DNA of 64,000 nucleotides from Candidatus Dormiibacterota bacterium (GTDB taxonomy: Bacteria > Chloroflexota > Dormibacteria > Aeolococcales > Aeolococcaceae), in assembly GCA_036495095.1 (NCBI GenBank), contig DASXNK010000107.1, positions 11,042 through 75,041 on the forward strand. Reading direction: 5' to 3'. Position 1 is the first letter of the stretch; every line of letters starts with the position of its first letter. Below are positions 35,525 to 63,185 of the stretch, one piece after another. The notes beneath the pieces are model-generated. The model worked only from the letters and a program-made list of their open reading frames with translations. It searched no databases and was not told the DNA's origin. The position numbers were made by a program, and so were the translations under genes.

Positions 35525-35810
35525 CGGCGGGCGCGTCGAGAGTAACGCTCGGGATGCCGCCCGCAGGGGTTGGTCGGTGTCCATGCCCCGGCGCCGGAGC
35601 GCGCAGTCGCCGCTGACAGCACTCCCGGTGCCCCTGATGAATGCACGCTGAAATGCACGTACAGTCGGTTTGACGCGGTTGATGACAGCGTGATGAAACC
35701 GGCGCGGCGGGCTCGCAAGCTTCACACATTGTGAGCGTTGAAGCCATATCGCCGGGTTCCGGCGAGGACGCAAGAGCTTCGATCGCCACGCCTGTTGATC
35801 TTCTGTTCAG

Positions 35811-35829
35811 GTTCCGTTAGTGTTCCGTT
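35811..35829. promoter_or_regulatory. Direct repeat GTTCCGTT-N3-GTTCCGTT, flanked by GTTCAG copies, upstream of the RND operon
   Basis: Four GTTC-containing repeats within 35 bp, ~90 bp upstream of the RND-1 start, in a lower-GC intergenic region. Confidence 0.3.
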
Positions 35830-35917
35830 CAGCAGGAAGGGATGGCGGTCGAAGGACGGAGATGAAGATGCCGCACGCGATGCCGGCCGCCACCCGGAGA
35901 GGAGGGGGACACACGTC

Positions 35918-38900: not shown

Positions 38901-39106
38901 GCCCCGGCACCGAGGTCCTGTACCCGATGGCAGCCGTGGTCCTGGGTGGCCTGGTCAGCTCGACGCTGGTCGCCCTGGTGGTGGTGCCGTCGCTGTATCT
39001 GCGCTTCGCACCCGCGTTGACGCTGACCGGCAGGGGGACCAGTCGGGTCCGCCTGCGGCCGCGTGGCGAACGGGTCGTCACGAGCTCGCCAATGGGGGAA
39101 GGTTGA
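35918..39106 (+). CDS. RND efflux permease, CzcA/CusA (HME)-like, copy 1
   Basis: 1062 aa. N-terminal ALPEFAPPTVTVQAEASGLSAAEVEQYVTTGLEQ matches the heavy-metal-efflux RND family. 12-TM architecture with two large loops. Confidence 0.85.
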   Translation: MIRELVALSLKFRVLVVGVAVVVMGVGVFQLRSASVDALPEFAPPTVTVQAEASGLSAAEVEQYVTTGLEQDLLNGVPWLDHMESNSSAGLVRVDLVFKPGTDPLKARQAVQERLTQAYVLPQVGTPPTMLQPLSSTSRVMMVGLSSKDLSLTDLSVLARWKIKPRLTGIPGVANVSIWGQRDRQLQVQVDPDKLRQNGVTLNQVISTAGNALFVSPLNFLQASTPGTGGFVDTSTQRLAIQHVLPVTTAKNLSSVTIEDTTGKSLTLGDVASVVEDHQPYLIGDAVLHNGPGLRLVIQKFPEASTQQVTRGVQDALAALRPGLSGVAIDTGVYQAQSFVDTALHDLGVVGLVSLAMFVLVVGLLLLSWRRAVITVTAALLSLVAAAYVLYLRGSTFNLMVLGGLAMALGVVVDDAVAELGAVRRRLREHRASGASTSIATVIAEASGAVRGPLLYGTLVALLVPLPLLFLDGVAGSFTRPIVLSYAIAVAVSTVVALAVTPALASLLLGGASDDRPGPGLRAAHRVFDVTVARLIGQPRAAYAMVALLLAAGLAVVPQLTTRAALPTPQDRNVLVRWQAVPGTSLAEMDRITGAASAELRHLSGVRDVGAHVGRAIASDEVVDVNAGEMWVSLNDTADYDATLAAVRRVLRGYPGLASTIESYTQDRVDAVTADAGTGSDLAVRVYGTDLATLKSTAQEMSHRVARVNGVVQPKVLEQPEQPTLEVKVDLDAAQKYGMAPGDVRRAASTFFAGTLVGNLYQDQRIFDVVVWSTPSTRYAPANLADLMVDTPAGPQVRLGDVASVKVVPYPTQLLHDADSRYVEIDAQIGGRDTGAVLNDVRRQVAAMPMPLEYHAEVFSQLAQQQGQDRTMLGLAAGTAIVIFLLLQAAFGSWRLATLASLLLPLSLVGGIAGNLLAGGELSLAAMLGLVTVLGLTARHIVVLVCGYLGLEAAEGFVDRGAAVRRVTRDRVGPILLTAAATAAVFVPVLVAGSRPGTEVLYPMAAVVLGGLVSSTLVALVVVPSLYLRFAPALTLTGRGTSRVRLRPRGERVVTSSPMGEG

Positions 39107-39107
39107 G

Positions 39108-39581
39108 ATGCACCGCCGCAATCACTGGGTCGCCGCCGGTCTCATCGTCGTCGGCCTCGGCCTGACCGGGTGCGGCACGACCAAGGCTGACTACGGAGAG
39201 GCCGGCCAGGGGAGTCCCGCCGAGGTCGTGCCGGTGAAGGGCACCAGTCTCAACCGGGTGACCCTCACCTCCGATGCCGCCTCGAAGCTCGGCGTCCAGA
39301 CCGTGCCGGTGGCGGCCGCGGTCATGCCGGCGAGCACCGACGGCACCGCCGCCGCCCCGGAGACGACCGTCCCCGTCAACGCGGTGATCTACGACAAGGA
39401 CGGCAACACCTGGGTGTACACGGTCACGCAGTCGCTCACCTACCAGCGGCAGGCGGTCGGCATCGCCCGGGTCGACGGTGACACCGCGGTGCTGAAGTCC
39501 GGTCCCGCACCGGGGACCAGGGTCGTGACCGTGGGTGCCCAGGAGCTCCTCGGCGCCGAGCTGGGTGTCGCAGGGGAATGA
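39108..39581 (+). CDS. Lipoprotein resembling a truncated membrane-fusion (periplasmic adaptor) protein
   Basis: Lipobox LTGCGT. C-terminal beta-barrel/MP-like pattern (VPVNAVIYDKDGNTWVYTV ... GTRVVTVGAQELLGAEL). GGGGGAAGG RBS. Translationally coupled to RND-2 (ATGA). Confidence 0.5.
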   Translation: MHRRNHWVAAGLIVVGLGLTGCGTTKADYGEAGQGSPAEVVPVKGTSLNRVTLTSDAASKLGVQTVPVAAAVMPASTDGTAAAPETTVPVNAVIYDKDGNTWVYTVTQSLTYQRQAVGIARVDGDTAVLKSGPAPGTRVVTVGAQELLGAELGVAGE

Positions 39582-42500
39582 CCACGCCGGGGGGGAACCG
39601 CACGCTGATGCGGTTCATCGTCAGCACCAGTCTGCGGTTCCGCTTCCTGGTGGTCGCCGCCGCCACCGCCATGATGGTGGTGGGCATCCTCCAGATCCAG
39701 AACATGCGGGTCGACGTCTTCCCTGAGTTCGCGCCGCCGCGCGTCCAGATCCAGACGATCTGCCAGGGTCTGTCCACCGCGGATGTCGAGGCGCTGGTCA
39801 CCGTCCCGCTCGAGCAGGCCCTGAACGGGATCAAGGGCCTCGACGTGATGCGGTCCAAGTCGGTGCCCCAGCTCTCCGCCATCGACATGATCTTCAAGCA
39901 GGGCGCCGACGAGCTCCAGGCTCGCCAGCTCGTCCAGGAGAGGCTGTCGACGGTGGTGAGCAGCCTGCCCACCTGGGCGTCGCCCCCGGTGATGCTGGCG
40001 CCGCTCTCGGCGACCGCCCGGGTGATGCAGATCGGGATGACCTCCAAGGAGCACACCCAGGTCGCCATGTCGATGATGGCGTACTGGACGGTCAGGTCGC
40101 GGATGCTCGAGGTTCCCGGGGTGGCCAACGTGGCCATCTGGGGCGAGCAGCTGCAGATGCGCACCGTCCAGGTCAAGCCCGAGGAGATGCAGGCGAAGAA
40201 GGTGACCCTCGAGGCGGTCATGGAGGGGGTCTCGTCCTCGATCGACACCGGCCTGCTGCGGTTCTCCAGCGGCAACGTGATCGGCACCGGCGGCAACGTG
40301 GTGACCGCCGGCCAGTCGATCAACATCCGCCACGTCATCCCGATCGTCACCCCCGCGGACCTCGCCCGGATCACGGTGCAGAACACCGATGGCACCTCGG
40401 TCCCGATCAGCTCGGTGGCCGACGTCAAGGAGGACCACCAGCCCCTGATCGGCGACGCCATCGTGGGCGACAGCACCGGCCTGATGCTGGTGGTCGAGAA
40501 GCTGCCGTGGGCCGACACCGTCAGGGTCACCCAGGGCGTGGAGGAGGTGGTCCGGATGCTCCAGCCGGGCCTCCCCGGGATCACCTTCGACACCAGGATC
40601 TTCCAGCAGGCCGACTTCATCCAGACCTCGATCCACAACCTCACCCAGTCGCTGCTGCTGGGCTTCGCGCTGGTGGTCGCCATCCTCCTGCTCTTCCTCT
40701 TCGAGTGGCGGGTGGCGCTGATCAGCCTGCTGACCATCCCGCTGTCGCTGATGGCGGCGATGCTGGTGCTCTACCTGCGCGGTGACACGGTCAACACGAT
40801 GACCCTCGCCGGGCTGGTGATCGCCCTGGGGGCGGTGGTCGACGACGCCATCATCGACGTCGAGAACATCCTCCGACGCCTTCGCGAGGCCCGCCGCGGC
40901 GGCAGCGAGGTGTCGACCGGGCGGATCATCCTCGACGCCTCGCTCGAGGTGCGGAGCCCGATCGTCTACGCGACGATGATCATCGTCGCCGCGGCGATCC
41001 CGGTGTTCCTGCTCGGGGGGCTGACCGGGTCGTTCTTCCAGCCGCTCGCGGTCTCCTACACGCTGGCGATCGTCGCCTCGATGGCGGTGGCGCTGACGGT
41101 GACGCCGGCGCTCACCCTGATCCTGCTGAGCCGGACCCGGGTGGAGCGGCGCGAGTCGCCGGTCACCCGCTGGCTGCAGCGCCGGTACACGGCGATGCTG
41201 TCGCGCATCGTGGTGCGACCGCGCAGCGTCTACCTCGGCTTCCTCGCGGTGGTCGCGGCCGCGGTGCTGCTGCTCCCGCAGATGGGGTCGAGCTTCTTCC
41301 CCACCTTCAAGGAGCGCGACTTCCTGATCCACCTGCTCACCACCCCGGGCACCTCCGCCCAGGAGCAGGACCGGATCGTCATCGCCCTCGGCAAGGACCT
41401 GCGCAGGGTTCCCGGGGTGCTCAGCTTCGGCAGCCACATCGGCCAGGCGTACCAGGGCGAGGAGGTCGCGGGCGTCAACTTCGCCGAGAACTGGCTGAGG
41501 ATCGACCCCAACGCCGACCTCGACGCGACCCTTGCGGGGGTGCGCAAGGTCATCGCCAGGTACCCCGGCGTCTATCGCGACGTGATGACGTACCTCAACG
41601 AGCGGATCGAGGAGGTGCTCACCGGCGCCAAGGAGCCGATCATCGTCCGCGTCTACGGTCAGGACCTGCAGACCCTGCGCGACGAGGCGGCGCAGATCCA
41701 GCACCGGCTGGCGGGCATCAGGGGCATCGCCGACGACCACACCGACCTCCAGTTCGACACTCCCCAGATCCAGGTCGAGGTCGACCTCGCCAAGGCCGCC
41801 GCCTACGGGTTGAAGCCCGGTGACGTGCGCCGCGCCGCCTCCACCCTGGTCGCCGGCGAGGAGGTCGGCGACATCTTCCGCGACGGCAAGGCCTACGACA
41901 CCGTGGTGTGGAGCACCCCCGAGACCCGCTCGAGCGTGGCGAGCATCAGCGAGCTGCCGATCGACACCCCGTCGGGCAAGGCGGTGCGGCTCGGCGACGT
42001 CGCCACCGTGAAGGTCCAGCCCAATCCCAGCTCGATCGACCGTGAGAACGACTCCCGCAAGATCGACGTGGCCGCGTCCGTCAGCGGTCGTGACCTCGGC
42101 TCGGTGGTCGCCGACGTGCGCAAGGCCGTGGACAGCATGCAGCTGCCCCAGGGGTACAACGCCGAGGTGCTCGGCGAGTACACCGAGCGCCAGGGGGCGC
42201 AGGGTCAGATGCTCTGGGTGGGCCTCATCGCCGGCCTGGCGATCCTGCTCCTGCTGCAGACGTCATTCCGCAGCTGGCGGCTCGCCGTGCTCATCCTGAG
42301 CACCCTGCCGATGGCCCTGGTCGGCGGTGTCATCGGCGCCTACCTCGGCGGCGGCATCGTCTCGATCGGCTCGCTGGTCGGGTTCTTCACGGTCTTCGGG
42401 ATCGCCGCCCGCAACGGCATCCTGCTGATCAACCACTTCCAGCACCTCGAGGAGGTCGAGGGCGAGCCCTTCGGACCGGAGCTGGTGCTGCGCGGCGCCC

Positions 42501-42739
42501 GGGAGCGGCTCTCGCCGATCCTGATGACCTCGCTGGCGACGGGCCTCGCCGTTGTGCCCCTGGTGGTGCTCGGCGCCCGGCCCGGATACGAGATCGAGTA
42601 CCCGCTGGCGGTGGTCATCATCGGCGGGCTGCTGACCTCGACGCTGCTCAACCTGTTCCTGGTGCCCTCCCTCTACCTGCGTTTCGGCAGGCGCCGCGAG
42701 GGAAGCCCGCGGGGATGGCGACTGCGTCGCAATCCCTGA
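39578..42739 (+). CDS. RND efflux permease, CzcA/CusA (HME)-like, copy 2
   Basis: 1053 aa, paralogous to copy 1 (VFPEFAPPRVQIQTICQGLSTADVEALVTVPLEQ). Confidence 0.85.
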   Translation: MTTPGGNRTLMRFIVSTSLRFRFLVVAAATAMMVVGILQIQNMRVDVFPEFAPPRVQIQTICQGLSTADVEALVTVPLEQALNGIKGLDVMRSKSVPQLSAIDMIFKQGADELQARQLVQERLSTVVSSLPTWASPPVMLAPLSATARVMQIGMTSKEHTQVAMSMMAYWTVRSRMLEVPGVANVAIWGEQLQMRTVQVKPEEMQAKKVTLEAVMEGVSSSIDTGLLRFSSGNVIGTGGNVVTAGQSINIRHVIPIVTPADLARITVQNTDGTSVPISSVADVKEDHQPLIGDAIVGDSTGLMLVVEKLPWADTVRVTQGVEEVVRMLQPGLPGITFDTRIFQQADFIQTSIHNLTQSLLLGFALVVAILLLFLFEWRVALISLLTIPLSLMAAMLVLYLRGDTVNTMTLAGLVIALGAVVDDAIIDVENILRRLREARRGGSEVSTGRIILDASLEVRSPIVYATMIIVAAAIPVFLLGGLTGSFFQPLAVSYTLAIVASMAVALTVTPALTLILLSRTRVERRESPVTRWLQRRYTAMLSRIVVRPRSVYLGFLAVVAAAVLLLPQMGSSFFPTFKERDFLIHLLTTPGTSAQEQDRIVIALGKDLRRVPGVLSFGSHIGQAYQGEEVAGVNFAENWLRIDPNADLDATLAGVRKVIARYPGVYRDVMTYLNERIEEVLTGAKEPIIVRVYGQDLQTLRDEAAQIQHRLAGIRGIADDHTDLQFDTPQIQVEVDLAKAAAYGLKPGDVRRAASTLVAGEEVGDIFRDGKAYDTVVWSTPETRSSVASISELPIDTPSGKAVRLGDVATVKVQPNPSSIDRENDSRKIDVAASVSGRDLGSVVADVRKAVDSMQLPQGYNAEVLGEYTERQGAQGQMLWVGLIAGLAILLLLQTSFRSWRLAVLILSTLPMALVGGVIGAYLGGGIVSIGSLVGFFTVFGIAARNGILLINHFQHLEEVEGEPFGPELVLRGARERLSPILMTSLATGLAVVPLVVLGARPGYEIEYPLAVVIIGGLLTSTLLNLFLVPSLYLRFGRRREGSPRGWRLRRNP

Positions 42740-50110: not shown

Positions 50111-50355
50111 CTGGCGGGACACCGGCGTTGTTGCCGGAGTGACAGCGAGCCTATCAGAAAACACAGCATTGACGTGTGGGTGTGACCTGCACGCCTGATT
50201 GCCACCATGAGTGCAGACCGCCCAGCGAGCATGACGGCCGGCTCTCGGTCCCGGTCAGCCACGGCGTCATAGGTGATACGATCGCGCTTCGGTTATCCGT
50301 CATAGTCGATATCAGAAAAAATCGGCTCTCGTCTGGATGGAGGTGCTCTGACGTG

Positions 50356-51417
50356 TCAATGTCGCATGGCAACGGCCATGTCCCCGTCACCGGAGGTGAC
50401 GGATGGGAGCCATCTCTTCCGCGGCCGCGGGGCCCGGTGAGCGCGGTCCTGCTGTCGCTCCTGACGTCATCCCCCCGGCGCCTTCCCGAGCCGCCGTCCC
50501 TTCCCGGGGATGCGCTCGGCGACGACGACCTCCACCTCGCCCTCTACGTCTGCTACGAGCTCGGCTACCGCGGCTTCGCCGGTGTCGACGAGGGCTGGGA
50601 GTGGCATCCCTCGCTGATCGCGTACCGCGCCCGTCTCGAGCAGGCCTTCGAGGCCGCACTCCGCGCCGCTCACCCGGCCCGCCCGGTGGACCCGCGGGAC
50701 GTCGCCGGCGAGCTGCAGTCGATCGTGGATGGAGACCGGTCGCCGTCGCTGTCCGGAACGCTGGCCACCACCGGCACGATTGCGCAGTATCGCGAGTTCG
50801 TCGTCCACCGCTCCGCGTACCAGCTCAAGGAGGCGGACCCGCACACCTGGGCGATCCCACGGCTGGCGGGTGTCCCCAAGGCGACCCTCGTCCGCATCCA
50901 GTTCGAGGAGTACGGGGACGGGTGCGCCGAGCGGATGCACTCCGCCCTCTTCGCGCGCACAATGGAGCAGCTCGGCCTCGACAGCCGGTACGGCGCTCAC
51001 CTCGAGCATCTGCCCGGACCCACCCTGGCCACCGTGAACCTCATGTCGATGTTCGGGCTGCACCGCCGCCTGCGTGGAGCGATCGTCGGTCACCTCGCCG
51101 TGTTCGAGATGACCTCGTCCGGGCCGAACGCGCGCTATGCCGCCGGCCTCCGCCGCCTCGGCCTCGACGCGGCGGCGACCCATTTCTACGACGAGCACGT
51201 CGAGGCCGACGGCGTGCACCAGGTGATGGCGCGCGACCAGCTGGCTGCGGCCCTCGCCCGCGCCGAGCCGCGACTCGGCGCGGACATCCTGTTCGGTGCC
51301 CGCGCCCTGCTCGGCCTCGAGGGCCGCTTCGCACAACGGCTGCTCGAGCGCTGGGCCGGTGGGGAGAGTTCGCTGCTCGGCCCCCTGGCGGAGCCCGCAG
51401 CCCTCTCCGTCGGATGA
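50356..51417 (+). CDS. Iron-containing redox enzyme family protein (haem-oxygenase-like fold)
   Basis: LALYVCYELGYRGFAGVDEGWEWHPSLIAYR and downstream helical His/Glu-rich segments resemble the HO-like di-iron/iron enzyme family. GGAGG RBS upstream. Confidence 0.55.
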   Translation, partial: SMSHGNGHVPVTGGDGWEPSLPRPRGPVSAVLLSLLTSSPRRLPEPPSLPGDALGDDDLHLALYVCYELGYRGFAGVDEGWEWHPSLIAYRARLEQAFEAALRAAHPARPVDPRDVAGELQSIVDGDRSPSLSGTLATTGTIAQYREFVVHRSAYQLKEADPHTWAIPRLAGVPKATLVRIQFEEYGDGCAERMHSALFARTMEQLGLDSRYGAHLEHLPGPTLATVNLMSMFGLHRRLRGAIVGHLAVFEMTSSGPNARYAAGLRRLGLDAAATHFYDEHVEADGVHQVMARDQLAAALARAEPRLGADILFGARALLGLEGRFAQRLLERWAGGESSLLGPLAEPAALSVG

Positions 51418-52390
51418 CGCTCAGCTACGTGCTGCCGCTCCGCTGCGACGCTGCGTGCGAGGGCACCCACCAGGACCTCATCGCCTACCTGCGGACCGTC
51501 GGTGGCCTGGCCGAGGTCCTGGTCGTGGACGGTTCCGGTCCGGCCGGCTTCGAGCGTCACCGGGGCGTCTGGCCGCCCGGCGTCCGCCACCTGCGCCCTG
51601 ACCCCGACCTCGGTGGCCGCAACGGGAAGGTGGCCGGGGTGCTCACCGGCGTGCGCCATGCCGCCGGCGAGCATGTGGTGATCGCCGACGACGATGTCCG
51701 CTGGTGTGCCGCGGGACTGCGCCGTGTCGACGCGCTCCTCGACGGCGCCGAGGTCGTTCGGCCGCAGAACTACTTCGACCCGGCGCCGTGGCACGCGCTG
51801 TGGGATACGGGACGGACCCTGATCAACCGGTGCACCGGCGGCGATTTCCCCGGCACCCTGGCGGTGCGCGGCTCGGTGCTGCTCGAGGCGGGCGGGTACT
51901 CGGGCGACGTGCTCTTCGAGAACCTCGAGCTGATCCGCACGGTGCGTGCGGCCGGCGGCCGCGAGGCGGTGCCGCTCGACCTGTACGTGGCCCGCCGGCC
52001 GCCGTCGACCCGCCGGTTCCTCTCGCAACGGGTGCGCCAGGCCTACGACGACCTCGCCATCCACAGCCGGCTCGCCGCCGCCCTGGCGGTGGTCCCGGTG
52101 GTGGCCTGGACCGGCCGCCGGCGGCCCGCAGCCCTGGGGCCGCTGGCGCTGTCCGTGGTGGTGCTGGCGGAGGCCGGCCGCCGCCGCGCCGGAGGCGCCG
52201 CGGTGTTCCCGGCGCGCGCGTCCTGGCTCGCTCCGCTGTGGGTCCTGGAGCGCGGCGTGTGCTCCTGGCTCGCGCTGGCCAGCCGGCTGCTGCTGGGCGG
52301 CTGCCGGTATCGAGGCGTTCGCATCGCCCGCGCCGCGTCGTCGCCGGCGGCGCTGCGCAGAGACATCGCCAGGAGTGGCAGGGTGGGTGG

Positions 52391-52394
<4 letters not shown>
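51414..52394 (+). CDS. GT2-family glycosyltransferase
   Basis: VVDGSG ... [10 protein letters not shown] (DxD) pattern. Translationally coupled (ATGA) to the genes on both sides. Confidence 0.6.
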
Positions 52395-54505
<2,111 letters not shown>

Positions 54506-54558
54506 GTCACTGCCAGCCACCTGGCCATCGGGACCGGAGGGTTGCGTGGGTGGTGCGT

Positions 54559-54819
54559 TCAGGGCGCCGAGGGCCCGCCTCCCGCGAGGCCGCGGACCAG
54601 CGTCTCCAACGAGCCTCCGCCGCCCGCGCTGCCGCTGACCGGCGGGCGCCCGCCACTCGGGCCTCCCACCTGGAGCGTCGCCGCCGCCGCTGTGACCGAC
54701 GGGGAGGTGGCCGAGAGGGTGGTTGTCCCGCCGCCGTGGACGATCCCCGCGAGCGCCAGGGTGGCCGCACCTGCGGCCGCACCGAGGAGGAGGGCGATCC
54801 TGCTGGGCATGAGGGTCTC
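54559..54819 (-). CDS. Possible small secreted Gly-rich protein
   Basis: C-terminal 87 aa of a longer ORF beginning MPSRIALLLGAAAGAATLALAG (signal-like). Frame statistics are not decisive in this GC-saturated region. Confidence 0.2.
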   Translation of the reverse strand, partial: ETLMPSRIALLLGAAAGAATLALAGIVHGGGTTTLSATSPSVTAAAATLQVGGPSGGRPPVSGSAGGGGSLETLVRGLAGGGPSAP

Positions 54820-55005
54820 CGCGTGGGCTGCACCCCACCTGCCGGGAGAGCAACCGGCAGAAGGGGGAACGACGGCGGGAGACGAAGCCTTGCGGCTGCG
54901 CCGGCGTCCGGGGCCCCGTCGCCACAACGACGGGTACATTCGTACACGCGCCGTGTGGCATCCGGCGTTGGTGGCGGCGACCCGAGCGCTCAGCATCAGG
55001 GAAAC

Positions 55006-55194
55006 GTGGGCGTGTTCCATCGCAACATCGACGTCGCCATCAATCCGCTGTACCAGAGCAGGAACTTTCTCAGCCAGAACTGGCAGTGGTTGTTCGGCCT
55101 CCTCTTCGGAGGCGGCGGCGGCCTGGTGATCTGGGTGGTGCGCTGCCTGCGATCGCGAGGGCCCACCGATTGCGCGAAAGGTCGACCGAGTTGA
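55006..55194 (+). CDS. Possible small membrane protein (62 aa)
   Basis: Codon-like periodicity in a lower-GC stretch and a hydrophobic WLFGLLFGGGGGLVIWVV segment. GTG start. Confidence 0.25.
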   Translation: MGVFHRNIDVAINPLYQSRNFLSQNWQWLFGLLFGGGGGLVIWVVRCLRSRGPTDCAKGRPS

Positions 55195-55290
55195 CAGAGC
55201 ACGTTGACGCTTGCTGACGGCCGCCGTACACTCGCGCAGCGGTCGTAGCGAGCCCATACCCCGACGACCGAGGGGAGTGGTGTGAACGCG

Positions 55291-55979
55291 ATGGGGCAGT
55301 CGTCCCGGGGGGGCGGGCGATCGCCGGCTTCCTCGCCGAGCTGACGCCACCGGAGACGGAGGATCTTCGGGCCCGGGCCCGTCATCGGCGATTCGCCCGC
55401 GGATCGTCGATCGTCAACGAGGGCGAGGTCCCGCGTCGGGTCGTCGTGCTGCTCAGCGGCCGCGTCAAGGTCTGCGACCATTCGGCGGATGGCCGCGAGA
55501 TCGTGCTCGGAGCCCGGGGCCCCGGCGACCTGATCGGGGAGATCTCCGTGATCGACGACCAGCCCTGCTCGGCCACGGTGACCGCCTTCGAGCCCGTCGA
55601 GGCGATGGTGATCGACGCCGCGGGGTTCACGGCCTTCCTCGACAGCCATCCCCGCATCCTCCGCGTGCTGCTGCGGTCGGTGGTACGGAAGCTCCGCGAC
55701 TCCGACCGCAAGCGCGTCGAGTTCGGGGTGTACGACACCGAGGGCCGGGTCGCGCGCCGGCTCGTGGAGCTGGCCGACGAGTACGGTGACGATCAGGAGG
55801 GAAGGGTCGGCATCACCCTGCCGCTCACGCAGCAGGAGCTGGCCGGCTGGACCTGTGCGTCGCGGGAGGCGGTCAGCAAGGCGCTGGGGAGCCTGCGCGG
55901 ATGCGGCTGGGTCGAGACCGATCGCCGGCGCGTCACCATCGTGAATCTCGATGCCCTTCGCCGTCGCGGGGGCCTCTGA
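55291..55979 (+). CDS. Crp/Fnr-family cNMP-binding transcriptional regulator; N-terminus out of frame at a G7 homopolymer
   Basis: The cNMP-binding beta-roll (RRFARGSSIVNEGEVPRRVVVLLSGRVKVC) and C-terminal HTH (LTQQELAGWTCASREAVSKAL) are in frame 0 from 55320 onward. The only start (ATG 55291, MGQSSRGG) is in frame +1, and one extra G in the G7 run 55307-55313 joins the two. Confidence 0.6.
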
Positions 55980-56003
55980 GGAGGCCCACCCGGGCCGGCG
56001 GGG

Positions 56004-57125
56004 TCACTCCGACTCGCGTTCGACCTCGTCGTGCAGGTCCGCGAGGATCTGGCAGAACCCGGGGTTGGCCCAATAGTCGTGGGAGCGCAGGCCACCGCCA
56101 CCCGGCCGCGCATCCTGCACGTTGTCGACCATCCTGTCCGTCACCGTGACAGGCCCGAGCTCGCCCTCGGCTGGAGACCACCGGTGAAAGAGGCCGGGGC
56201 CGCCCGTGTGGGGCTGACCTCGGCGCCACGTGACCGGCGGCTGAAGGGAGTCGGCAACCGGATCACGACGATCCCAGACGTTGATCCACCGCCGCGGGCA
56301 GAGCCGGCCCGCGTCGGTGCCCCAGCCGAGGAGGTCGGCGTACTTCCGCAGCGGGCTGCCGGCGGTGACCAGGCCGCGGATCTTGAGGTCGGTCGAGGGA
56401 TCGAGGTCGGAGAGCACGTCGAAGCCGACCACCGTGCCGTTGCTGTGGGTGTTGAGCACGATGGCGCGCACATCCTCGCGGCAGCTGAGAGAGGTCAGCA
56501 CCGCCTCGACGAAGCTGCGGACGCGCTCCCGGTACTTGTGGCGGGCCACATAGCCGCCGACATCCTGGGAGACCTGCCAGACGATGCTGAACGGACCGGA
56601 CGGGCGCCGGTTGGGCTCGCGCCGGCGCGGATGACGCCGCATGCGATTCCGCAGCTGCCTCCTCTGCGCCTCGTCCCGCAGTCGGAGCGAGCCGGGATAC
56701 GAGGTGGCGCCCGGAGATCCCTTGCGACGGAGGCTCTGGAGGGTGCCGACGAGCATCTGCACCGCACCTCGCGCGGTGATGTAGCTCCGGGCGTAGCGCA
56801 CCGACCAGAGGATGATCGCGAACAGTCCCAGAGGGTCGGGCATGCTCTCCTCGAAGCACGTGTACACGAGGGCGACGTGGGCGCAGTGCGCCCCGGGGGT
56901 GGCGAGCGGGCGGGAGGGATCGAGGCGGTCCATCGACGTCGGGCTGGGACCGGCAACGTACACCGCTCCATGGCCCCGCTCGGGATCGTCGCCGAGCCCG
57001 GGGATGACCTCCCGCAGCATCGAGTGGAGGGCATCCGCGTAGCCGGGCATGCCCTGGCCGTCGTCGGGCGGCTCCTCGAACCCGATGCCGTGGATCGTGA
57101 CCAGGCAGGTCAGCGGCCCGCTCAT
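56004..57125 (-). CDS. Alpha/beta-hydrolase-like (lipase/esterase-type) protein, translationally coupled to the AC-STAND gene
   Basis: LVTIHGIGFE oxyanion-type region, NTHSNGT nucleophile-elbow-like motif, and later Asp/His candidates (WINVWDRRDPVA, RSHDYWANP). ATG overlaps the upstream stop (ATGA). Confidence 0.55.
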   Translation of the reverse strand: MSGPLTCLVTIHGIGFEEPPDDGQGMPGYADALHSMLREVIPGLGDDPERGHGAVYVAGPSPTSMDRLDPSRPLATPGAHCAHVALVYTCFEESMPDPLGLFAIILWSVRYARSYITARGAVQMLVGTLQSLRRKGSPGATSYPGSLRLRDEAQRRQLRNRMRRHPRRREPNRRPSGPFSIVWQVSQDVGGYVARHKYRERVRSFVEAVLTSLSCREDVRAIVLNTHSNGTVVGFDVLSDLDPSTDLKIRGLVTAGSPLRKYADLLGWGTDAGRLCPRRWINVWDRRDPVADSLQPPVTWRRGQPHTGGPGLFHRWSPAEGELGPVTVTDRMVDNVQDARPGGGGLRSHDYWANPGFCQILADLHDEVERESE

Positions 57126-60100
57126 CGGCCCTCGGCACTCCCGAGGACGTCGAACGACGGCACCACCGGCCCGGCCGTCGTCGTCGCCCGGTCGCGGTCG
57201 GCCAGAACGCTGAGGTGCCATCGTTCGCCCGCCTCGAGCAACTGAAGGGCGTCGAGAGCGGCGTCGAAGCGGACGATGGCCTGGACGCGGGCCGGCCCCC
57301 CCTGCGCCAGCAGGGCGCGCCCGTGGAGCTGGTGCGCCTCGGCCACGTCCCAGGGGAGTCCCTGGCGGCGAAAGCCGTCCACCGCTTCCGAGAAGAGGTG
57401 CGTGGCCTCACCCATGCGGCCGTCGGTGGCGAGGATCGACGCCTCGGCGAGGTCGAGCGCGGTGGCGGCGCCTCCCCAGTCCTCGCCGCCGGCGACGATC
57501 GCGCGGCACCGCGCCAGCTGCTCCCGCGCCTGCTCGCTCCTGCCGGTCTCCGCCAGCACGAGGCTGAGCTGGCACCGGCATCGCAGCTCGTGCGGCAGGT
57601 TCTGCTCGCCGTGCCGGGGCAGTGCCGAGAGCAGCTCGACCTCCGCCTCGGCGTGCCGCCCGAGCAGCCGGAGAAGCTCGGCGATCCGGCTCGAGTCGGC
57701 CGCCTCGAACCACCGGTTGCCCGACTGCCGGGCGCGGGCCCGGGAGTGTTCGAGAACCTCCAGGCCCTCCTCCCAACGCCCTTCGGCAAGCGCGAGGAGG
57801 TACTGGGCGTGGAACTGTGCGGAGCGCGGCGGCGGCCCGACGCTCCGGGCCCGGTCGAGAGCACCTCCCAGGACCAGGCCGTAGGCGAGCGCGCTCCGCA
57901 GGACGTCCTGGTGGATGGGACTCGTGGCCGCCCGGGACGAGGCCAGCTCCCGCTCCGCCGACCGCCGGGCCGCCTCGGGGTCGCGCCGGAAGAAGCAGTG
58001 GAGACCGCACAGGACGACCGTGGCCATGAACGCGGGAACCTGATGGCCGGCGGCGTCGGCCGTGTTCCACGCCCGCTCACAGAGCGCCACGCCCTCGGCC
58101 ACCCGCCCGCACATCACCAGCTGGCAGCCGTGGACCGCTGCAGCGTTGGCCCAGAGGACCTCGTTGCCGGACCGCTCGCCGATCAGCATCGACCTCTCCG
58201 AGAGCGCCATCCCCTCCGCCGGGCGCATCCGCCAGGTGGCGACCAGCGCCATGCCGGCGCACAGATATCCGTTGGAGAGGCTCGGGCCACCCGCCGAGAG
58301 CACCGCCTCGGCGGCGCGGAGGTGGGCGTCGGCGAGGTTCACCTCGGTCATCTCGGGGTTGGTGATGTACTGCGCGCCGAGATGCGCATGCATCTTCGCG
58401 GCGCCGGCCTCGTCACCCATGTCGCGGTGGAGGCGGAGCGCCTCCTCCAGGTACTCGGCGGCGGCTGCATAGTCGAGGTTGCTGATGAACATGGCGACGC
58501 CCAGCCGGCGCAGCAACCGTGCGCGCGCCGGTGGATCCGGGTCCAGCTTTGCCAGCAGGTCCAGGGCCGTCCGCCAGTGCAGGATCGCCTCCTCCCAGGC
58601 GAAGACCGTGGCGGACAGGTCCCCAGCCAACCGGGCCCAATGTGCCGCCGTGGATGGGTCGGCGTTGTGGCCCGCCAGCCGGTAGTGGGTCGCGATCTCG
58701 GGGATCCGTGATGCCATCGCGGGTGCGGCGGTCGCCTCGATCGCCTCCGCGGCTCGAAGGTGGGCGCGCTGCCTCCGCGGCGTGCTCAACCCTTCGTACA
58801 GGGCCTGCCGCACCAGCGCGTGGCTGAAGGCATAGCGGGGGTCGGGCCGGTCCTTCACCTCAGCGACCAGTCGACGTTCGATCGCCTCCTCGAGCGCGGA
58901 GATCAGCGGCTCCTCCTCCAGGCCGGTCACGCCAGGCAGCACGGCGAGGTCGAACTGGCGGCCGAGGACGGAGGCGTGGGCGAGCAGCGAGCGGCACCCC
59001 TCGGAGAGCCGCGAGAGCCGTTCCCCGATCACCTCGCGCACGCTGGCGGGGATCCCGGCTCGCTCCACCGAGTGGACCGGGACGTCACATCCGGATCCGC
59101 TGGCGATGCTGCCGGTCTCGAGCAGGTGACGGATGACCTCCTCGAGGAAGAACGCGTTGCCCTCGGTCTCGGAGTGGATCGCCGAGACCAGCGCCTCGCT
59201 CGCCTCACCTCCGGCGAGCGCGTGGATCAGCGTGGCCACGGAGCCGCGGTCGAGCCCCGCCATGGAGATCCGCTCGACGACCTGCCGCCGGCGGAGAGCG
59301 GTGAGGGTCTCTACGAACGGATGGGTCCGGGCCAGGTCGCTGTCGCGATAGGTGCCGAGCACGAGCAGGGACGATGGCACCGGTGACTGCAGAAGATGCT
59401 GCAGCAGCTGCAGGGTGGGACGATCCGACCAGTGGAGGTCGTCGAGCACGAGCACCATCGGTGTCAGCGACGAGGCGCCGACCAGGGTGGACACCACCGC
59501 CTCGAAGAGGCGGTAGCGCTCGATCTCGGGGTCGCCGCTGCGTGGTTGCGGTTGGCCTGCGAGGCGGTCGCAGAGCTCCGGGATCAGGCGCGCGACCTCC
59601 CAGGCGGCATCGCGATGCTGCAGCTGCAGATCCTCGGCGGGCACGTGGGAGAGGTGGTGGCGGAGCGCCTCGGTGAAGGGCTGGTACGGAGTCTGGGTCG
59701 CCTCGTCGCAACGACCATAGAGCACGGTGCCGCCCCCGGCGTGCACCGAGGTCGCGAACTCGGCGGCCACCCGCGTCTTGCCGATGCCCGCCTCGCCGGC
59801 GATGAGCACCAGGCGCCGATCGCCATTTCGTGCCCGAGCCCAGGCGGCGTGCAGCAGCGTGAGCACGTCGCGGCGCCCGACGAACGGCGTGTCGGCGCCG
59901 GCGGCGAGCGACATCGGCGAGGGAGCCGGGAGGCGCGGCTCCCACACCACCTCCGCCAGAGCGATGGGCGTGCGCACCCCCCGGATCGACCGGATGCCGA
60001 GCCCTCGGAAACCGTGGCGTCCACGCGGCTCGGCGAGGTTGCGCACCAGGTCCGAGGCGATGATCTGGCCCCCGTCGGCGATGTCGCAGATCCGTTTGGC

Positions 60101-60460
60101 GATGTTGACCGATGCCCCGAAGTAGTCGTCCTCGTCCCGAATCGGCTCGCCGATGTGCAGCCCGATGCGCACCTCGAGTGGGTGCCCACCGGGTTGACAG
60201 TTGTGCCGGTGCACCGCCTGCTGCATGGCGACGGCGCAGGCGACAGCATCGAGCGCCGACCCGAAGGCGACCATCAGTCCGTCGCCCACCTGCTTCACCT
60301 CCTCGCCGCAGCCGTGCGAGACCACCGCACGGAGCAGACGATAGTGGGCGCGGCGCACTCCCTCTGCGACCTCGTCTCCCAGACGGTCGTAGAGATCCGT
60401 CGACCCCACGATGTCGGTGAAGAGCAGGGTGACGGTTGCGCCCCTCCGCACGGACACCAT
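57122..60460 (-). CDS. Multidomain signalling protein: class III adenylyl/guanylyl cyclase domain + STAND/AAA P-loop NTPase + TPR repeats
   Basis: N-terminal CHD (LLFTDIVGSTDL...GDGLMVAFG), Walker A LIAGEAGIGKTRV, then ~700 aa of helical/TPR-like repeats. 1112 aa. No C-terminal LuxR HTH is visible. Confidence 0.85.
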   Translation of the reverse strand: MVSVRRGATVTLLFTDIVGSTDLYDRLGDEVAEGVRRAHYRLLRAVVSHGCGEEVKQVGDGLMVAFGSALDAVACAVAMQQAVHRHNCQPGGHPLEVRIGLHIGEPIRDEDDYFGASVNIAKRICDIADGGQIIASDLVRNLAEPRGRHGFRGLGIRSIRGVRTPIALAEVVWEPRLPAPSPMSLAAGADTPFVGRRDVLTLLHAAWARARNGDRRLVLIAGEAGIGKTRVAAEFATSVHAGGGTVLYGRCDEATQTPYQPFTEALRHHLSHVPAEDLQLQHRDAAWEVARLIPELCDRLAGQPQPRSGDPEIERYRLFEAVVSTLVGASSLTPMVLVLDDLHWSDRPTLQLLQHLLQSPVPSSLLVLGTYRDSDLARTHPFVETLTALRRRQVVERISMAGLDRGSVATLIHALAGGEASEALVSAIHSETEGNAFFLEEVIRHLLETGSIASGSGCDVPVHSVERAGIPASVREVIGERLSRLSEGCRSLLAHASVLGRQFDLAVLPGVTGLEEEPLISALEEAIERRLVAEVKDRPDPRYAFSHALVRQALYEGLSTPRRQRAHLRAAEAIEATAAPAMASRIPEIATHYRLAGHNADPSTAAHWARLAGDLSATVFAWEEAILHWRTALDLLAKLDPDPPARARLLRRLGVAMFISNLDYAAAAEYLEEALRLHRDMGDEAGAAKMHAHLGAQYITNPEMTEVNLADAHLRAAEAVLSAGGPSLSNGYLCAGMALVATWRMRPAEGMALSERSMLIGERSGNEVLWANAAAVHGCQLVMCGRVAEGVALCERAWNTADAAGHQVPAFMATVVLCGLHCFFRRDPEAARRSAERELASSRAATSPIHQDVLRSALAYGLVLGGALDRARSVGPPPRSAQFHAQYLLALAEGRWEEGLEVLEHSRARARQSGNRWFEAADSSRIAELLRLLGRHAEAEVELLSALPRHGEQNLPHELRCRCQLSLVLAETGRSEQAREQLARCRAIVAGGEDWGGAATALDLAEASILATDGRMGEATHLFSEAVDGFRRQGLPWDVAEAHQLHGRALLAQGGPARVQAIVRFDAALDALQLLEAGERWHLSVLADRDRATTTAGPVVPSFDVLGSAEGR

Positions 60461-60588
60461 TCGACTCCTGCTGATGAAACGAATCGGGTGGAGGGTCCCT
60501 CGAGACGAAACCGATCTGTGTAGGTGCTCTGCTTCCCGTATGGGCCTATACTGGACGAACTCTCAGAAGGGCGCAAGCTGGGCAGGTT

Positions 60589-61155
60589 GTGTCAGATACG
60601 AGACGATTGACCGGCGAGACCGAGGCCATGACCGTGGTCTGCCCGGTGCACCGCTGGGGGCCATTGCAGCTCGGACTGGTGTTCTCGGTCATCCATCTGG
60701 TTCCGGCGCTCCTGCGCAAGCTGCGACGGCTGTCGTTCATCGACTACGCGGGCTGGGGCGTCACCGATCCGCTGCCGTGGGGCGGGCCCGTACCCGGTGC
60801 TCGCCGGCAGGCAAACACCCTTGTGTTCATCAGCAACTTCGACGGCGGCCGTGACGAGTACCTGGCCGAGTTCGCCGAGGCCCTGCGCGTTCGCCTCGGT
60901 CTGGTATGGCTCAGCTCCGTGGGATTCCCCGGCCCATTTCGGCTGACCCCGTTCCAGCGCTCGGCGACCATGTATGACTACGGCGCCGACCACTACTACG
61001 CCGCCCGGCCGACGGCCACGGCGACCGACATCACCCGAGCCCTGGAACTCGAGCGGTCGCTGCTGACGTTCCGTGCGGAGGCCGCCGCCGTCGACGCGGA
61101 CGCATTCCCGGAGCGCTTTCACCGGTTCCTGAGTGAGGTGCAGCGGCTGCTGTGA
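60589..61155 (+). CDS. Hypothetical protein paralogous to the N-terminal extension of the downstream DyP-type peroxidase
   Basis: Shares LVFISNFDGGRDEYL / YDYGAD...ITRALELERSL with the LLYASTFDGTVDAHVEL / GYNATLEDVIRSLELHGRF segments of the 61152 protein. Stop overlaps the next start (GTGA). Confidence 0.45.
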   Translation: MSDTRRLTGETEAMTVVCPVHRWGPLQLGLVFSVIHLVPALLRKLRRLSFIDYAGWGVTDPLPWGGPVPGARRQANTLVFISNFDGGRDEYLAEFAEALRVRLGLVWLSSVGFPGPFRLTPFQRSATMYDYGADHYYAARPTATATDITRALELERSLLTFRAEAAAVDADAFPERFHRFLSEVQRLL

Positions 61156-63185
61156 CGGCGGTCTCGCAACCCCGACGACGGCAGCGGAGGCGGGTCGCTC
61201 TGACGGGAGGGAGGCCGCTTCCGGTGTTCGCCGTCCTCAGTCCCATCAGGGATGACCAGGTGCTGGGCCTGAGGGACTACCTGAGGGGGCTCGGGACCGG
61301 CGAGCACAGCCCCTTCCACCGGATGAACGGGACCATCCACTTCGCGCGGTGGGTGGTCATCGACGACAGCGATCGTCAGCCGGCCCACGATCGCTGCCGT
61401 TTCGTTCAACCCCACCTCCTCTACGCCAGCACCTTCGACGGCACTGTGGACGCGCACGTCGAGCTGCTCCGCACCCTGCTCAGCGACGAGGTCGAGGAGA
61501 CGTGGGGACGGTGCGTGGACGGCCCCCACCCGGGCGACAGGGCGGCGTTCACCGAATACCTGGAGCGGTGCCGGCTGGTCGTCGGCCTGCCCTTCAGTGG
61601 ATACAACGCAACCCTCGAGGACGTCATCCGGAGCCTCGAGCTCCACGGGCGTTTCCGCGAGATGGCCTTCGCCGCCGCCGCGACCCGGCCGGCGTCGCTC
61701 AAGGCGCGGTTCGAGGCGGTCTTCACCGAGGCGATGACACCCACCCGCAGGCCCCGGCCGCGCGCCCGGCGGCCGGCGTGGATCGCGGGCAGGGGACAGC
61801 CGGGCGGGCACAACCCTCCTCAGGGAAACGTGCTGCGACCCTACCGGCTGCCCTTCGCGGTCATCAGCTTCGTCGAGGTGGGCGGGGGGGCTGCGGCCGC
61901 CCGGTGGCTCGCCGAGGTCGGATCGAGGGTGACCTATGAGGACGAGCCGGACCGTCCGCCCTGGGCTCTCAATGTCGGCTTCACCTACCCGGGCCTGAGG
62001 GCACTCGGGTTCGATGACGAGTCGCTCGCCCTGTTTCCAACCGACTTCCGTGAGGGGCCGGTGCACAGGGCCAGGCTCCTCGGCGACGTCGGCGACAGCG
62101 CGCCCCAGTACTGGGACGACGGCACCGGGTCGCCCGACCGCGTGCACGTCATGGTGGCGATCCACGCTCGGGACCAGGAGACGCTGGAGGAGGAGCACAG
62201 CCGTCTGCTCGGTGACATCGACGGCACCGGAGGACAGGTGGTCATCGTCGGCGAGCGGCGGGCGAAGCGGATGCCGGACGGCCGTGAGCACTTCGGCTTC
62301 GTCGACGGCATCAGCCAGCCGCGCATCCTGTCCGGCCGCGGTCGCGTCGGGATGTGGCGCATCTGGCCCTGGCGGCGTGGCCCCAACCCTCGCATCGCGC
62401 TTGGCGAGTTCCTCCTCGGACATCGCGACGAGGGCGGCACCCGGCCGCACGGCCCACCGGGTGCGCTGTCGCACAACGGAAGCTACCTCGTGTACCGCAA
62501 GCTGCAGCAGCACGTGGGCTGTTTCCGTGCGCTGCTGCGCGAGCAGGCGCCGCCGGGCGGCGAGGAGGAGCTCGCCGCCAAGCTGATGGGACGCTGGCGC
62601 GACGGCACCCCGCTGGTGCTCTCCCCGGACGGGCCCGATCCCCTGCGGGCCCGCTCCCCGCGGCTGAGCAACGACTTCGGCTACCGCGGCGATCGGGACG
62701 GCTTCGCATGCCCCATCGGTGCCCACATCCGGCGCGCGAATCCCCGTGACGCCCTGGAGGCGGACAGCTTCCCCCTCCGCCACCGGATGCTGCGCCGCGG
62801 CATCCCGTACGGAGATCCGCTTCCCCCTGACGCGACCGAGGACCGGGAGGAGGGCGATCCCCGGGGCCTGGTGTTCATGGCCTACATGAGCAGCATCGAC
62901 CGGCAGTTCGAGTTCATCCAGACCCGGTGGCTGAACCGCGGTGACGCCTTCAAGCTGGGTCCGGCGAGGGACGTTATCGCGGGTGACAGCAGCTCCGGCC
63001 GCTGGATGGTCGTCCAGGGGCGCCCCCCGCGCCTTCTTCCCGACCTCGCGCCGCTGGTCACCACCCGGGGGGGCGCCTACCTCCTCGTGCCCGGGCGCGA
63101 CGGGGTCGACCACATCGTCGAACACGCGACTGCGGCGGCCAGGTCCGCGGAACAGCAGGCGCGGAGCGGGGCCTCGCCGGGATGA
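61152..63185 (+). CDS. DyP-type haem peroxidase with an additional ~220-aa N-terminal domain
   Basis: DyP motifs HFGFVDGISQP and GEFLLGHRDEGG in the C-terminal 430 aa. An unusual N-terminal extension is paralogous to the upstream gene. Confidence 0.65.
   Translation: MTAVSQPRRRQRRRVALTGGRPLPVFAVLSPIRDDQVLGLRDYLRGLGTGEHSPFHRMNGTIHFARWVVIDDSDRQPAHDRCRFVQPHLLYASTFDGTVDAHVELLRTLLSDEVEETWGRCVDGPHPGDRAAFTEYLERCRLVVGLPFSGYNATLEDVIRSLELHGRFREMAFAAAATRPASLKARFEAVFTEAMTPTRRPRPRARRPAWIAGRGQPGGHNPPQGNVLRPYRLPFAVISFVEVGGGAAAARWLAEVGSRVTYEDEPDRPPWALNVGFTYPGLRALGFDDESLALFPTDFREGPVHRARLLGDVGDSAPQYWDDGTGSPDRVHVMVAIHARDQETLEEEHSRLLGDIDGTGGQVVIVGERRAKRMPDGREHFGFVDGISQPRILSGRGRVGMWRIWPWRRGPNPRIALGEFLLGHRDEGGTRPHGPPGALSHNGSYLVYRKLQQHVGCFRALLREQAPPGGEEELAAKLMGRWRDGTPLVLSPDGPDPLRARSPRLSNDFGYRGDRDGFACPIGAHIRRANPRDALEADSFPLRHRMLRRGIPYGDPLPPDATEDREEGDPRGLVFMAYMSSIDRQFEFIQTRWLNRGDAFKLGPARDVIAGDSSSGRWMVVQGRPPRLLPDLAPLVTTRGGAYLLVPGRDGVDHIVEHATAAARSAEQQARSGASPG

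Follow-up and report, generated by a model that had tools for sequence, protein, structure and literature searches.

This report concerns two overlapping genes in a 64,000-nucleotide stretch of DNA from Candidatus Dormiibacterota bacterium (contig DASXNK010000107.1 of assembly GCA_036495095.1); the whole of this stretch, as analysed, is called the window below. Gene A encodes a predicted class III adenylyl cyclase joined to an ATPase of the STAND (signal transduction ATPases with numerous domains) class and a tetratricopeptide repeat (TPR) region, and gene B, directly downstream, encodes a serine-hydrolase-like protein. A first-pass annotation made from the sequence alone had offered two readings of the pair, a module that signals through cyclic AMP (cAMP) or a phage-defence effector pair activated by a nucleotide signal. 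In window coordinates, the two genes and their main features are as follows.

57122-60460, minus strand: gene A, class III adenylyl cyclase with AAA_16 STAND ATPase and TPR region, 1112 amino acids (open reading frame (ORF), translation and Pfam).
59936-60445, minus strand: cyclase catalytic domain of gene A, residues ~6-175 (Pfam Guanylate_cyc and alignment to Ma1120).
59360-59887, minus strand: AAA_16 (STAND/MalT-type) NTPase core of gene A (Pfam AAA_16 and Walker residues).
57125-58543, minus strand: C-terminal helical/TPR sensor region of gene A, residues ~640-1112 (Pfam TPR_12 and family alignment).
57122-57125, minus strand: ATGA overlap formed by the gene B start codon and the gene A stop codon, read directly from the sequence (cgATGAgc).
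56004-57125, minus strand: gene B, a 373-residue serine-hydrolase-like protein of an unannotated alpha/beta-hydrolase-like family (homologues, motifs and structural model).
56436-56450, minus strand: predicted nucleophile elbow T-H-S228-N-G of gene B (H227, S228 and G230 invariant in 35 sequences; structural model).

Pfam places Guanylate_cyc (PF00211) on residues 6-146 of gene A (57.5 bits against a cut-off of 21.9), AAA_16 (PF13191) on residues 192-367 (108.8 bits against 32.6) and TPR_12 on three stretches of the C-terminal third, the best of them at residues 925-988 (46.5 bits against 30.1). The NTPase core also matches NACHT and nSTAND models weakly, and it contains a Walker A motif (GEAGIGKT, residues 222-229) and a Walker B motif (LVLDDLHW, residues 337-344), of which GEAGIGKT and LVLDD are invariant in an alignment of 13 relatives. 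The closest solved match to the cyclase domain is Ma1120 of Mycobacterium avium (4wp9; E = 2.4e-24), and alignment to this structure and to 5d0g reveals all six canonical adenylyl-cyclase residues. D16 and D60 align with the metal ligands of Ma1120, N119 and R123 with its transition-state residues, and K56 and D112, the adenine-specifying pair, with the residues mutated in 5d0g, the Ma1120 specificity-swap mutant (K/D/A). D16, K56, D60, D112 and R123 are invariant in the 13 relatives; N119 is variable among them. Judged by these residues, gene A is a predicted catalytically complete class III adenylyl cyclase under STAND control.

Relatives of gene A number more than 4,439 database proteins at E <= 1e-50, mostly of the same architecture, and the family is very abundant in soil Actinomycetota, Chloroflexota and Dormibacterota. 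The best database match, at locus L081, is 69% identical, and several sources label the relatives 'class 3 adenylate cyclase/TPR repeat protein'. Among the 120 best matches, the cyclase-AAA_16-TPR form without a helix-turn-helix (HTH) domain is the norm, and a subset additionally carries an N-terminal Ser/Thr kinase. Such genes also occur as tandem or divergent arrays of paralogues in soil metagenome contigs (L086, L121, L133 and L154).

This family bears directly on the possibility that gene A is a decayed LuxR regulator of the Rv0386/LAL kind that has lost its C-terminal HTH. Rv0386, Rv1358 and Rv2488c of Mycobacterium tuberculosis do join a cyclase domain to a LuxR HTH (PMC3466318), and one relative of gene A, P0126 (45% identity), does bear a GerE domain. 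However, GerE is missing from the other 119 of these 120 relatives, which are of the same length (~1080-1140 residues), so gene A is not a truncated regulator. A Pfam scan found no HTH, GerE or any other DNA-binding domain in gene A; the alignment of the 13 relatives extends to the C-terminus, which marks the gene as full length; and because the start codon of gene B overlaps the end of gene A, there is no room between them for an HTH remnant. We consider decay exceedingly improbable and, on sequence grounds, effectively excluded. The same comparisons make gene A a full-length and unexceptional representative of a very large family of signalling proteins.

Gene B has no match in Pfam, NCBIfam or PADLOC. 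The N-terminus of its product, MSGPLTCLVTIHGIGF, agrees with the start of its homologues, and no signal peptide was found. A word-indexed search returned 376 homologues, all annotated as 'hypothetical' and none with a Pfam domain, most of them from metagenome-assembled genomes of Dormibacterota, Chloroflexota and Actinomycetota; apart from gene B itself, the best match has 46% identity, and an identical copy exists solely on a 2.2-kb Logan contig. Searched against 1.84 billion representatives, a profile of the family recovered 146 clusters (50% identity) at E <= 1e-30, nearly all of them single-domain proteins of 380-430 residues. Six motifs are invariant among 35 aligned sequences: T10-x-H12-G13-x-G15 and G28-Y-A-D31 near the N-terminus, then N225-x-H227-S228-x-G230, T254-x-G256-S-P258, W280-x-N282-x-x-D285-x-x-D288-P and H349-x-Y-W.

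In an AlphaFold model of gene B (pLDDT 83.9, pTM 0.86), strand 219-227 leads into the serine and then into helix 229-239, forming a strand-Ser-helix elbow, D285 and D288 come after strand 279-285, and H349 stands ahead of the last helix, which together give the order Ser-Asp-His. A helical insertion of ~120 residues (98-215) could serve as a lid. The model has weak Foldseek matches in the PDB (best E = 0.018), the top ones all being lipases, cutinases, LCAT/LPLA2, PGAP1-like proteins and RavL, which ranks third. RavL, a 'putative lipase' of Legionella, is also the sole match in a PDB profile search (E = 0.52, below significance), and a viral library yielded two uncharacterised giant-virus proteins along with weak lipase, PGAP1, DUF676 and LysB matches. 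Pfam, NCBIfam, the PDB profile search and Foldseek gave no match of significance to any characterised hydrolase, in sequence or in fold, and the term 'lipase-like' therefore rests on the invariant motifs, the AlphaFold model and the weak lipase-type fold matches. From motifs and model we conclude that gene B probably encodes a cytoplasmic serine-hydrolase-like enzyme that represents a new and so far unannotated branch of the alpha/beta-hydrolases of lipase type.

The gene B-type domain also occurs in fused form. P0297 (L164, 8001-9731; also L165, 965-2695) joins TIR_2 to a complete gene B-type hydrolase domain, and its neighbours, which comprise SLATT_1, DUF4231 and LSDAT genes and a TIR-NB-ARC-WD40 gene, resemble the neighbourhood of a conflict system. 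In P0284 (987 residues), pentapeptide repeats are joined to a gene B-type domain that has NG instead of HS at the nucleophile elbow and is probably an inactive variant.

By sequence, genes A and B are a real two-gene operon, translationally coupled through a 4-bp ATGA overlap: the gene B ATG at 57125 overlaps the gene A TGA, a GAGG-type Shine-Dalgarno sequence lies 6-9 nucleotides upstream of gene B, and a search for intrinsic terminators gave none between the two. Most of what the first-pass annotation had described at this pair stands. ORFs and Pfam confirm the cyclase-STAND-TPR architecture of 57122-60460, the Pfam scan agrees that it lacks a DNA-binding domain, the overlap is plain in the sequence, and the invariant motifs, model and fold matches of gene B are consistent with the lipase- or esterase-like enzyme that had been proposed.

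We examined how this pairing fares elsewhere in two samples, 80 genome loci around gene B homologues and 83 loci for gene A, the latter made up of 80 metagenome loci around its relatives and the three closest contexts. A co-directional and usually overlapping hydrolase gene lies directly downstream in five of nine gene A contexts (relatives of at least 44% identity, the window included), and the folds of these hydrolases differ. The slot is filled in L082 and L083 by a signal-peptide-bearing GHSQGG lipase with weak Lipase_2/PGAP1 matches (69% identity between the two), in L166 by a metallo-beta-lactamase (MBL)-fold enzyme and on the P0129 contig by a penicillin-amidase-family protein. The L082 and L083 lipases were considered as gene B homologues and rejected by BLASTP and hhalign, the nucleophile elbow alone being alignable. 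Downstream genes of more distant gene A relatives are heterogeneous, with no recurring family among 10 candidate partners, and at L108 a relative is followed by a TIR_2 plus TPR protein (4141-5802).

Seen from gene B, an AAA_16 gene lies directly beside a homologue in 4 of the 80 loci, two of them cyclase-bearing, where ~0.3-0.8 would be expected from gene density in the same 1.27 Mb (rough Poisson P ~0.003-0.05 for three independent events). At L022 and L063, both from Solirubrobacterales, a gene B homologue whose residues predict an intact catalytic site is followed by a 1383-residue protein with two cyclase homology domains and an AAA_16 domain, and at L022 the two genes overlap. These cyclase-STAND proteins, with NTPase cores 26% identical to that of gene A, belong to a different subfamily, and the gene order is reversed. 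The remaining AAA_16 genes that directly adjoin a gene B homologue are at L031, where GerE is also present, and L037. No gene A-type C-terminus was seen upstream of the gene B homologue at the edge of the L007 contig.

A third gene enters the argument from the far side of gene B.

55291-55979, plus strand: Crp/Fnr-family regulator (cNMP_binding and HTH_Crp_2), convergent with gene B (Pfam, translation and alignment).

Pfam scores this product at 75.8 bits for PF00027 and 65.5 bits for PF13545, alignments put it at ~38-40% identity to M. tuberculosis Crp and GlxR, and a sigma-70-like promoter match lies nearby at 55204-55232. An orthologue occurs at L166, where a gene A relative (51% identity), the MBL-fold hydrolase and the Crp-like gene stand in that order, co-directional and overlapping. 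By analogy, the cassette resembles a synthesise/degrade/sense arrangement; the MBL protein is distantly similar to RNase Z and a model of cyclic-nucleotide phosphodiesterase, scoring far under the cut-off in each case. The MBL and Crp-like genes are paired without a gene A relative at L169 and L170. Gene order suggests that, in at least two lineages, the neighbourhood common to gene A and the Crp-like clade is probably ancestral, and the regulator probably belongs to the same ancestral neighbourhood as the A-B locus. Unannotated genes of ~390 residues beside Crp-like orthologues at L171 and L172 were considered as gene B homologues and rejected, being Kelch-like repeat proteins.

On balance, and with modest confidence, we favour the view that the A-B locus is a cAMP signalling locus with an accessory hydrolase and not an immune system. 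This view draws support from the canonical ATP-specifying and catalytic residues of gene A and from the L166 operon, which places MBL and Crp-like genes beside a gene A relative; the signalling reading of the first-pass annotation gains from both. Further support comes from the intact Walker motifs, the full-length family without an HTH, the ATGA overlap, the motifs and model of gene B, the hydrolase genes after close gene A relatives, the L022 and L063 pairs and the synteny with L083 described below. By analogy with MalT-type STAND proteins, binding of a ligand or partner to the TPR arm would release autoinhibition, and the ATP-bound NTPase core would then oligomerise. Class III cyclases are active only as dimers, and, if gene A behaves as they do, its N-terminal cyclase domains would be brought together as active dimers, which would make cAMP from ATP. 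Gene B would most likely act, as an accessory enzyme, on a small ester, amide or lipid-type metabolite, either making or removing the ligand or serving as a co-regulated output, although we hold this with low confidence. The other hydrolases found after gene A relatives might tentatively be given the same role, acting on a metabolite that is the signal, a precursor of it or a sink for it. The cAMP produced could be read by regulators that bind cyclic nucleoside monophosphates (cNMPs), possibly but not certainly the adjacent Crp-like one, which is again a tentative step. Precedents for joining a hydrolase to a cyclase exist in the fusions LipJ/Rv1900c and 3mr7, both matched by the cyclase domain of gene A.

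Several observations weigh against this view, and the first group concerns the regulator. Being convergent with gene B, the Crp-like gene is not co-transcribed with it. Its cNMP domain is preceded by no in-frame ATG, GTG or TTG, and the frame either breaks at the G7 run at 55307-55313 or begins oddly close to it. One extra G in this run would bring the ATG at 55291 into frame; either the homopolymer was misread in sequencing or the frameshift is real. In its phosphate-binding cassette, QPCSATV, a Cys takes the place of the Arg in the P-R-[ST]-S of Crp proteins. That Arg (R82 in Escherichia coli, part of the PRTS motif in M. tuberculosis Crp) contacts the cyclic phosphate, and its replacement makes the label 'cAMP receptor' doubtful; the residues suggest that the ligand may be something other than cAMP. 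The Cys, which turns PRSAT into PCSAT and lies within 55218-55979 in the window, is kept in the orthologues at L007 (8201-8872, 86% identity) and L166 (4176-4925, 67% identity) and is found in 30 of the 120 best Crp-like homologues, nested among Arg-bearing relatives. The commonest partner of the Crp-like clade is an MBL-fold hydrolase (L166, L169 and L170), not a gene A relative. Palindromes of the CRP-box type (TGTGA-N6-TCACA, at most two mismatches) occur at 4 sites against 9.6 expected, with none in the gene A promoter. The first-pass annotation was right about the family of this neighbour, but its distance from the gene B stop is 24 bp rather than 100 bp, and its role as a cAMP receptor is in doubt.

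The second group concerns the pairing itself. A close gene A relative adjoins a gene B homologue in none of the 80 gene B loci (at L072 alone, one lies 5 kb away), and a gene B homologue is found in none of the 83 gene A loci; it is likewise absent from the eight closest gene A-relative contexts. When all flanking ORFs were clustered, gene B homologues had no recurring neighbour, the best shared cluster reaching 11 of the 80 loci, and the link between A and B may therefore be local and recent. The first-pass annotation had named two findings that would speak against its proposal, a LuxR HTH in all orthologues and a hydrolase that is not conserved with gene A. The former is not what we see, with GerE in a single relative out of 120, and the latter is. 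By sequence comparison, the A-B pair is not a conserved system and its pairing is only loosely conserved.

The same counts fit an alternative in which the two genes are juxtaposed without any dedicated functional link, gene B being a free-standing metabolic hydrolase that came to lie, or was kept, downstream of one of many paralogous STAND cyclases and shares only a transcript with it. Members of the gene B family are almost always solitary and sit in varied metabolic contexts (Pfam on 115 flanking genes returns a mixture of DeoC, APH, aminotransferases, hydantoinase and the like), the closest gene A relative, at L081, has no downstream partner, and an amylase gene near gene B both here and at L021 hints that gene B had an older position of its own. 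Against it, the ATGA overlap implies coupled translation, gene B homologues stand beside AAA_16 STAND genes more often than gene density would predict, and a hydrolase of some kind follows gene A in five of the nine close contexts. We regard this alternative as doubtful.

The wider window adds the following two genes upstream of gene A.

60589-61155, plus strand: 188-residue ORF, divergent from gene A (41% identity to L083:4144-4737).
61152-63185, plus strand: long DyP-type peroxidase-like gene, 677 residues (Pfam DyP_N/Dyp_perox_C and TIGR01413).

The DyP-like gene is 39% identical over 679 residues to L083:4780-6876, and the L083 relative of the 188-residue ORF lies upstream of a gene A relative with 57% identity. 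The two window genes are syntenic with L083, where a patatin, the gene A relative, a lipase and a catalase-related gene come next. A ~190-residue protein and a long DyP-like peroxidase characterise the neighbourhood of this gene A subclade (window 60589-63185; L083 4144-13522; L082 3497-6912), and patatin, secreted lipase, catalase-related protein and fatty-acid desaturase genes are additionally found around gene A relatives, which suggests a lipid-oxidation theme. On the other side, a CBM48 plus alpha-amylase (GlgX-like) gene lies two genes from gene B (51704-54505) and directly upstream of the gene B homologue at L021 (4994-9259), in an uncultured actinomycete; this arrangement may be an old synteny for gene B. 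The neighbours examined are of housekeeping type (two RND transporters, a LigD primase-polymerase, a PhzF-like gene, an AI-2E transporter, the GlgX-like amylase and the DyP-like gene), the transporters being adjacent AcrB/RND-family genes of ~1100 residues each at 35735-42739. The G+C content of the window is ~73%. Third-position GC is 0.81-0.88 for genes at 50173-63185, compared with 0.91-0.98 for most other genes, and this segment may differ in origin or in expression level.

The locus could also be an abortive-infection or conflict pair in which the STAND-TPR protein senses a phage protein, the cyclase signals (or the oligomer acts directly) and the lipase-like product of gene B attacks membranes. 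Sensors built from STAND and repeat parts, with partners that vary, are typical components of immune systems, and the partner fold after gene A relatives varies as effectors do. The TIR-gene B fusion P0297 beside its SLATT_1, DUF4231, LSDAT and TIR-NB-ARC-WD40 genes, the TIR-TPR protein that follows a gene A relative at L108 and the lower third-position GC of the 50-64 kb segment point the same way, and cNMP cyclase domains are found in predicted conflict systems of multicellular bacteria (PMC7159879). However, PADLOC finds in gene A a weak, generic similarity to PycC (E = 1e-5, 23 bits over 76 residues, corresponding to the generic class III core) and in gene B nothing, its matches among 42 window ORFs are to generic domains only, and among the 115 neighbours of gene B homologues it picks out essentially one kinase, with no enrichment of defence genes. 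The cyclase carries the ATP-specifying Lys/Asp of housekeeping adenylyl cyclases, gene B has no cNMP-binding domain, and the sole cNMP-binding protein nearby is a transcription factor. Secreted lipases and penicillin amidases would be atypical suicide effectors, and the neighbours examined included no integrase, transposase or restriction gene. We consider a defence role very unlikely. The defence reading of the first-pass annotation, which had suggested running PADLOC on the contig and looking for relatives in defence islands, is accordingly not borne out by the generic matches in the window, the metabolic neighbours in the 80 gene B loci or the lack of defence or mobile context.

A bolder reading is that the gene B family, so far unrecognised as such, supplies an effector or partner domain to NTP-dependent STAND and TIR systems, in which case cyclase-STAND proteins, both in the window and in Solirubrobacterales, would control a lipase-like hydrolase through cAMP or direct contact. 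More widely still, the variable-hydrolase slot (esterases, MBL-fold enzymes and an Ntn-acylase) may encode enzymes that make or destroy the ligand of the TPR sensor. Taken jointly, these ideas strike us as unlikely, but the wider one, if true, would define a new route of signal processing whose output is cAMP together with a Cys-variant Crp regulator.

The HTH-less cyclase-STAND-TPR form is abundant, yet we found no study of it in the literature searched. With its translational coupling to an enzyme and its synteny with a Crp-type regulator, gene A gives a way into the question of what such sensors detect. The locus also brings into view two groups not distinguished by current domain libraries, a family of lipase-like hydrolases of ~150 clusters at 50% identity and a Crp subclade without the Arg that contacts the phosphate of cAMP. 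For defence screens the lesson is a negative one, in that domain resemblance alone is insufficient to score a cyclase-STAND protein with a hydrolase as an immune system.

Among known systems, the M. tuberculosis proteins Rv0386, Rv1358 and Rv2488c combine a cyclase, an ATPase and a LuxR HTH, and Rv0386 is an experimentally active cyclase (PMC3466318). As in gene A, their class III cyclase is N-terminal and leads into an AAA_16-type ATPase and a helical-repeat region; gene A differs from the Rv0386 type in lacking the GerE/LuxR HTH and in having the canonical Lys/Asp substrate pair. Castro et al. are said to have described, in 2005, Gln/Asn at this pair of Rv0386 instead of Lys/Asp. The metal, substrate and transition-state residues of Ma1120 align one to one with those of gene A, but Ma1120 is a stand-alone catalytic domain and the STAND and TPR parts are found only in gene A. 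STAND proteins of the MalT/LAL/AfsR type have in common with gene A the AAA_16 core, a C-terminal TPR-like sensor and, by analogy, a likely logic of oligomerisation that depends on ligand and ATP; their output is a DNA-binding domain, whereas that of gene A is the N-terminal cyclase.

Two of the immune systems that the locus brings to mind share parts of it. Pycsar also uses a class III-type cyclase, PycC, but its effectors combine cNMP binding with a TIR or transmembrane domain; gene B lacks a cNMP-binding domain, and the cNMP-binding protein nearby is convergent and carries an HTH. Avs and NLR-like antiviral STAND proteins recall the combination of a STAND NTPase, a repeat sensor and a neighbouring lipase-like gene, and gene A matches no Avs/NLR model in PADLOC. 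From both, the locus is set apart by the adenine-type substrate residues of gene A and by the lack of a defence-island context.

On the hydrolase side, LipJ (Rv1900c; PDB 1ybt) and 3mr7 bring together an alpha/beta-hydrolase and a class III cyclase, as the A-B locus does, and the NCBIfam model for LipJ, NF058673, matches the cyclase domain of gene A. In these proteins, however, the two domains share one polypeptide without a STAND module, and gene B has no detectable similarity to the LipJ model (no NCBIfam match). Lipases of the PGAP1, DUF676, LCAT and RavL types share with gene B an HSxG nucleophile elbow followed by a GSP/GTP motif, all of these matches being below significance; gene B is distinguished from them by its ~120-residue helical insertion and by its own invariant N-terminal motifs, TxHGxGF and GYAD. 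Set beside these systems, the A-B locus is best filed under an already known class, the STAND-regulated class III adenylyl cyclases, accompanied by an accessory hydrolase from an undescribed family.

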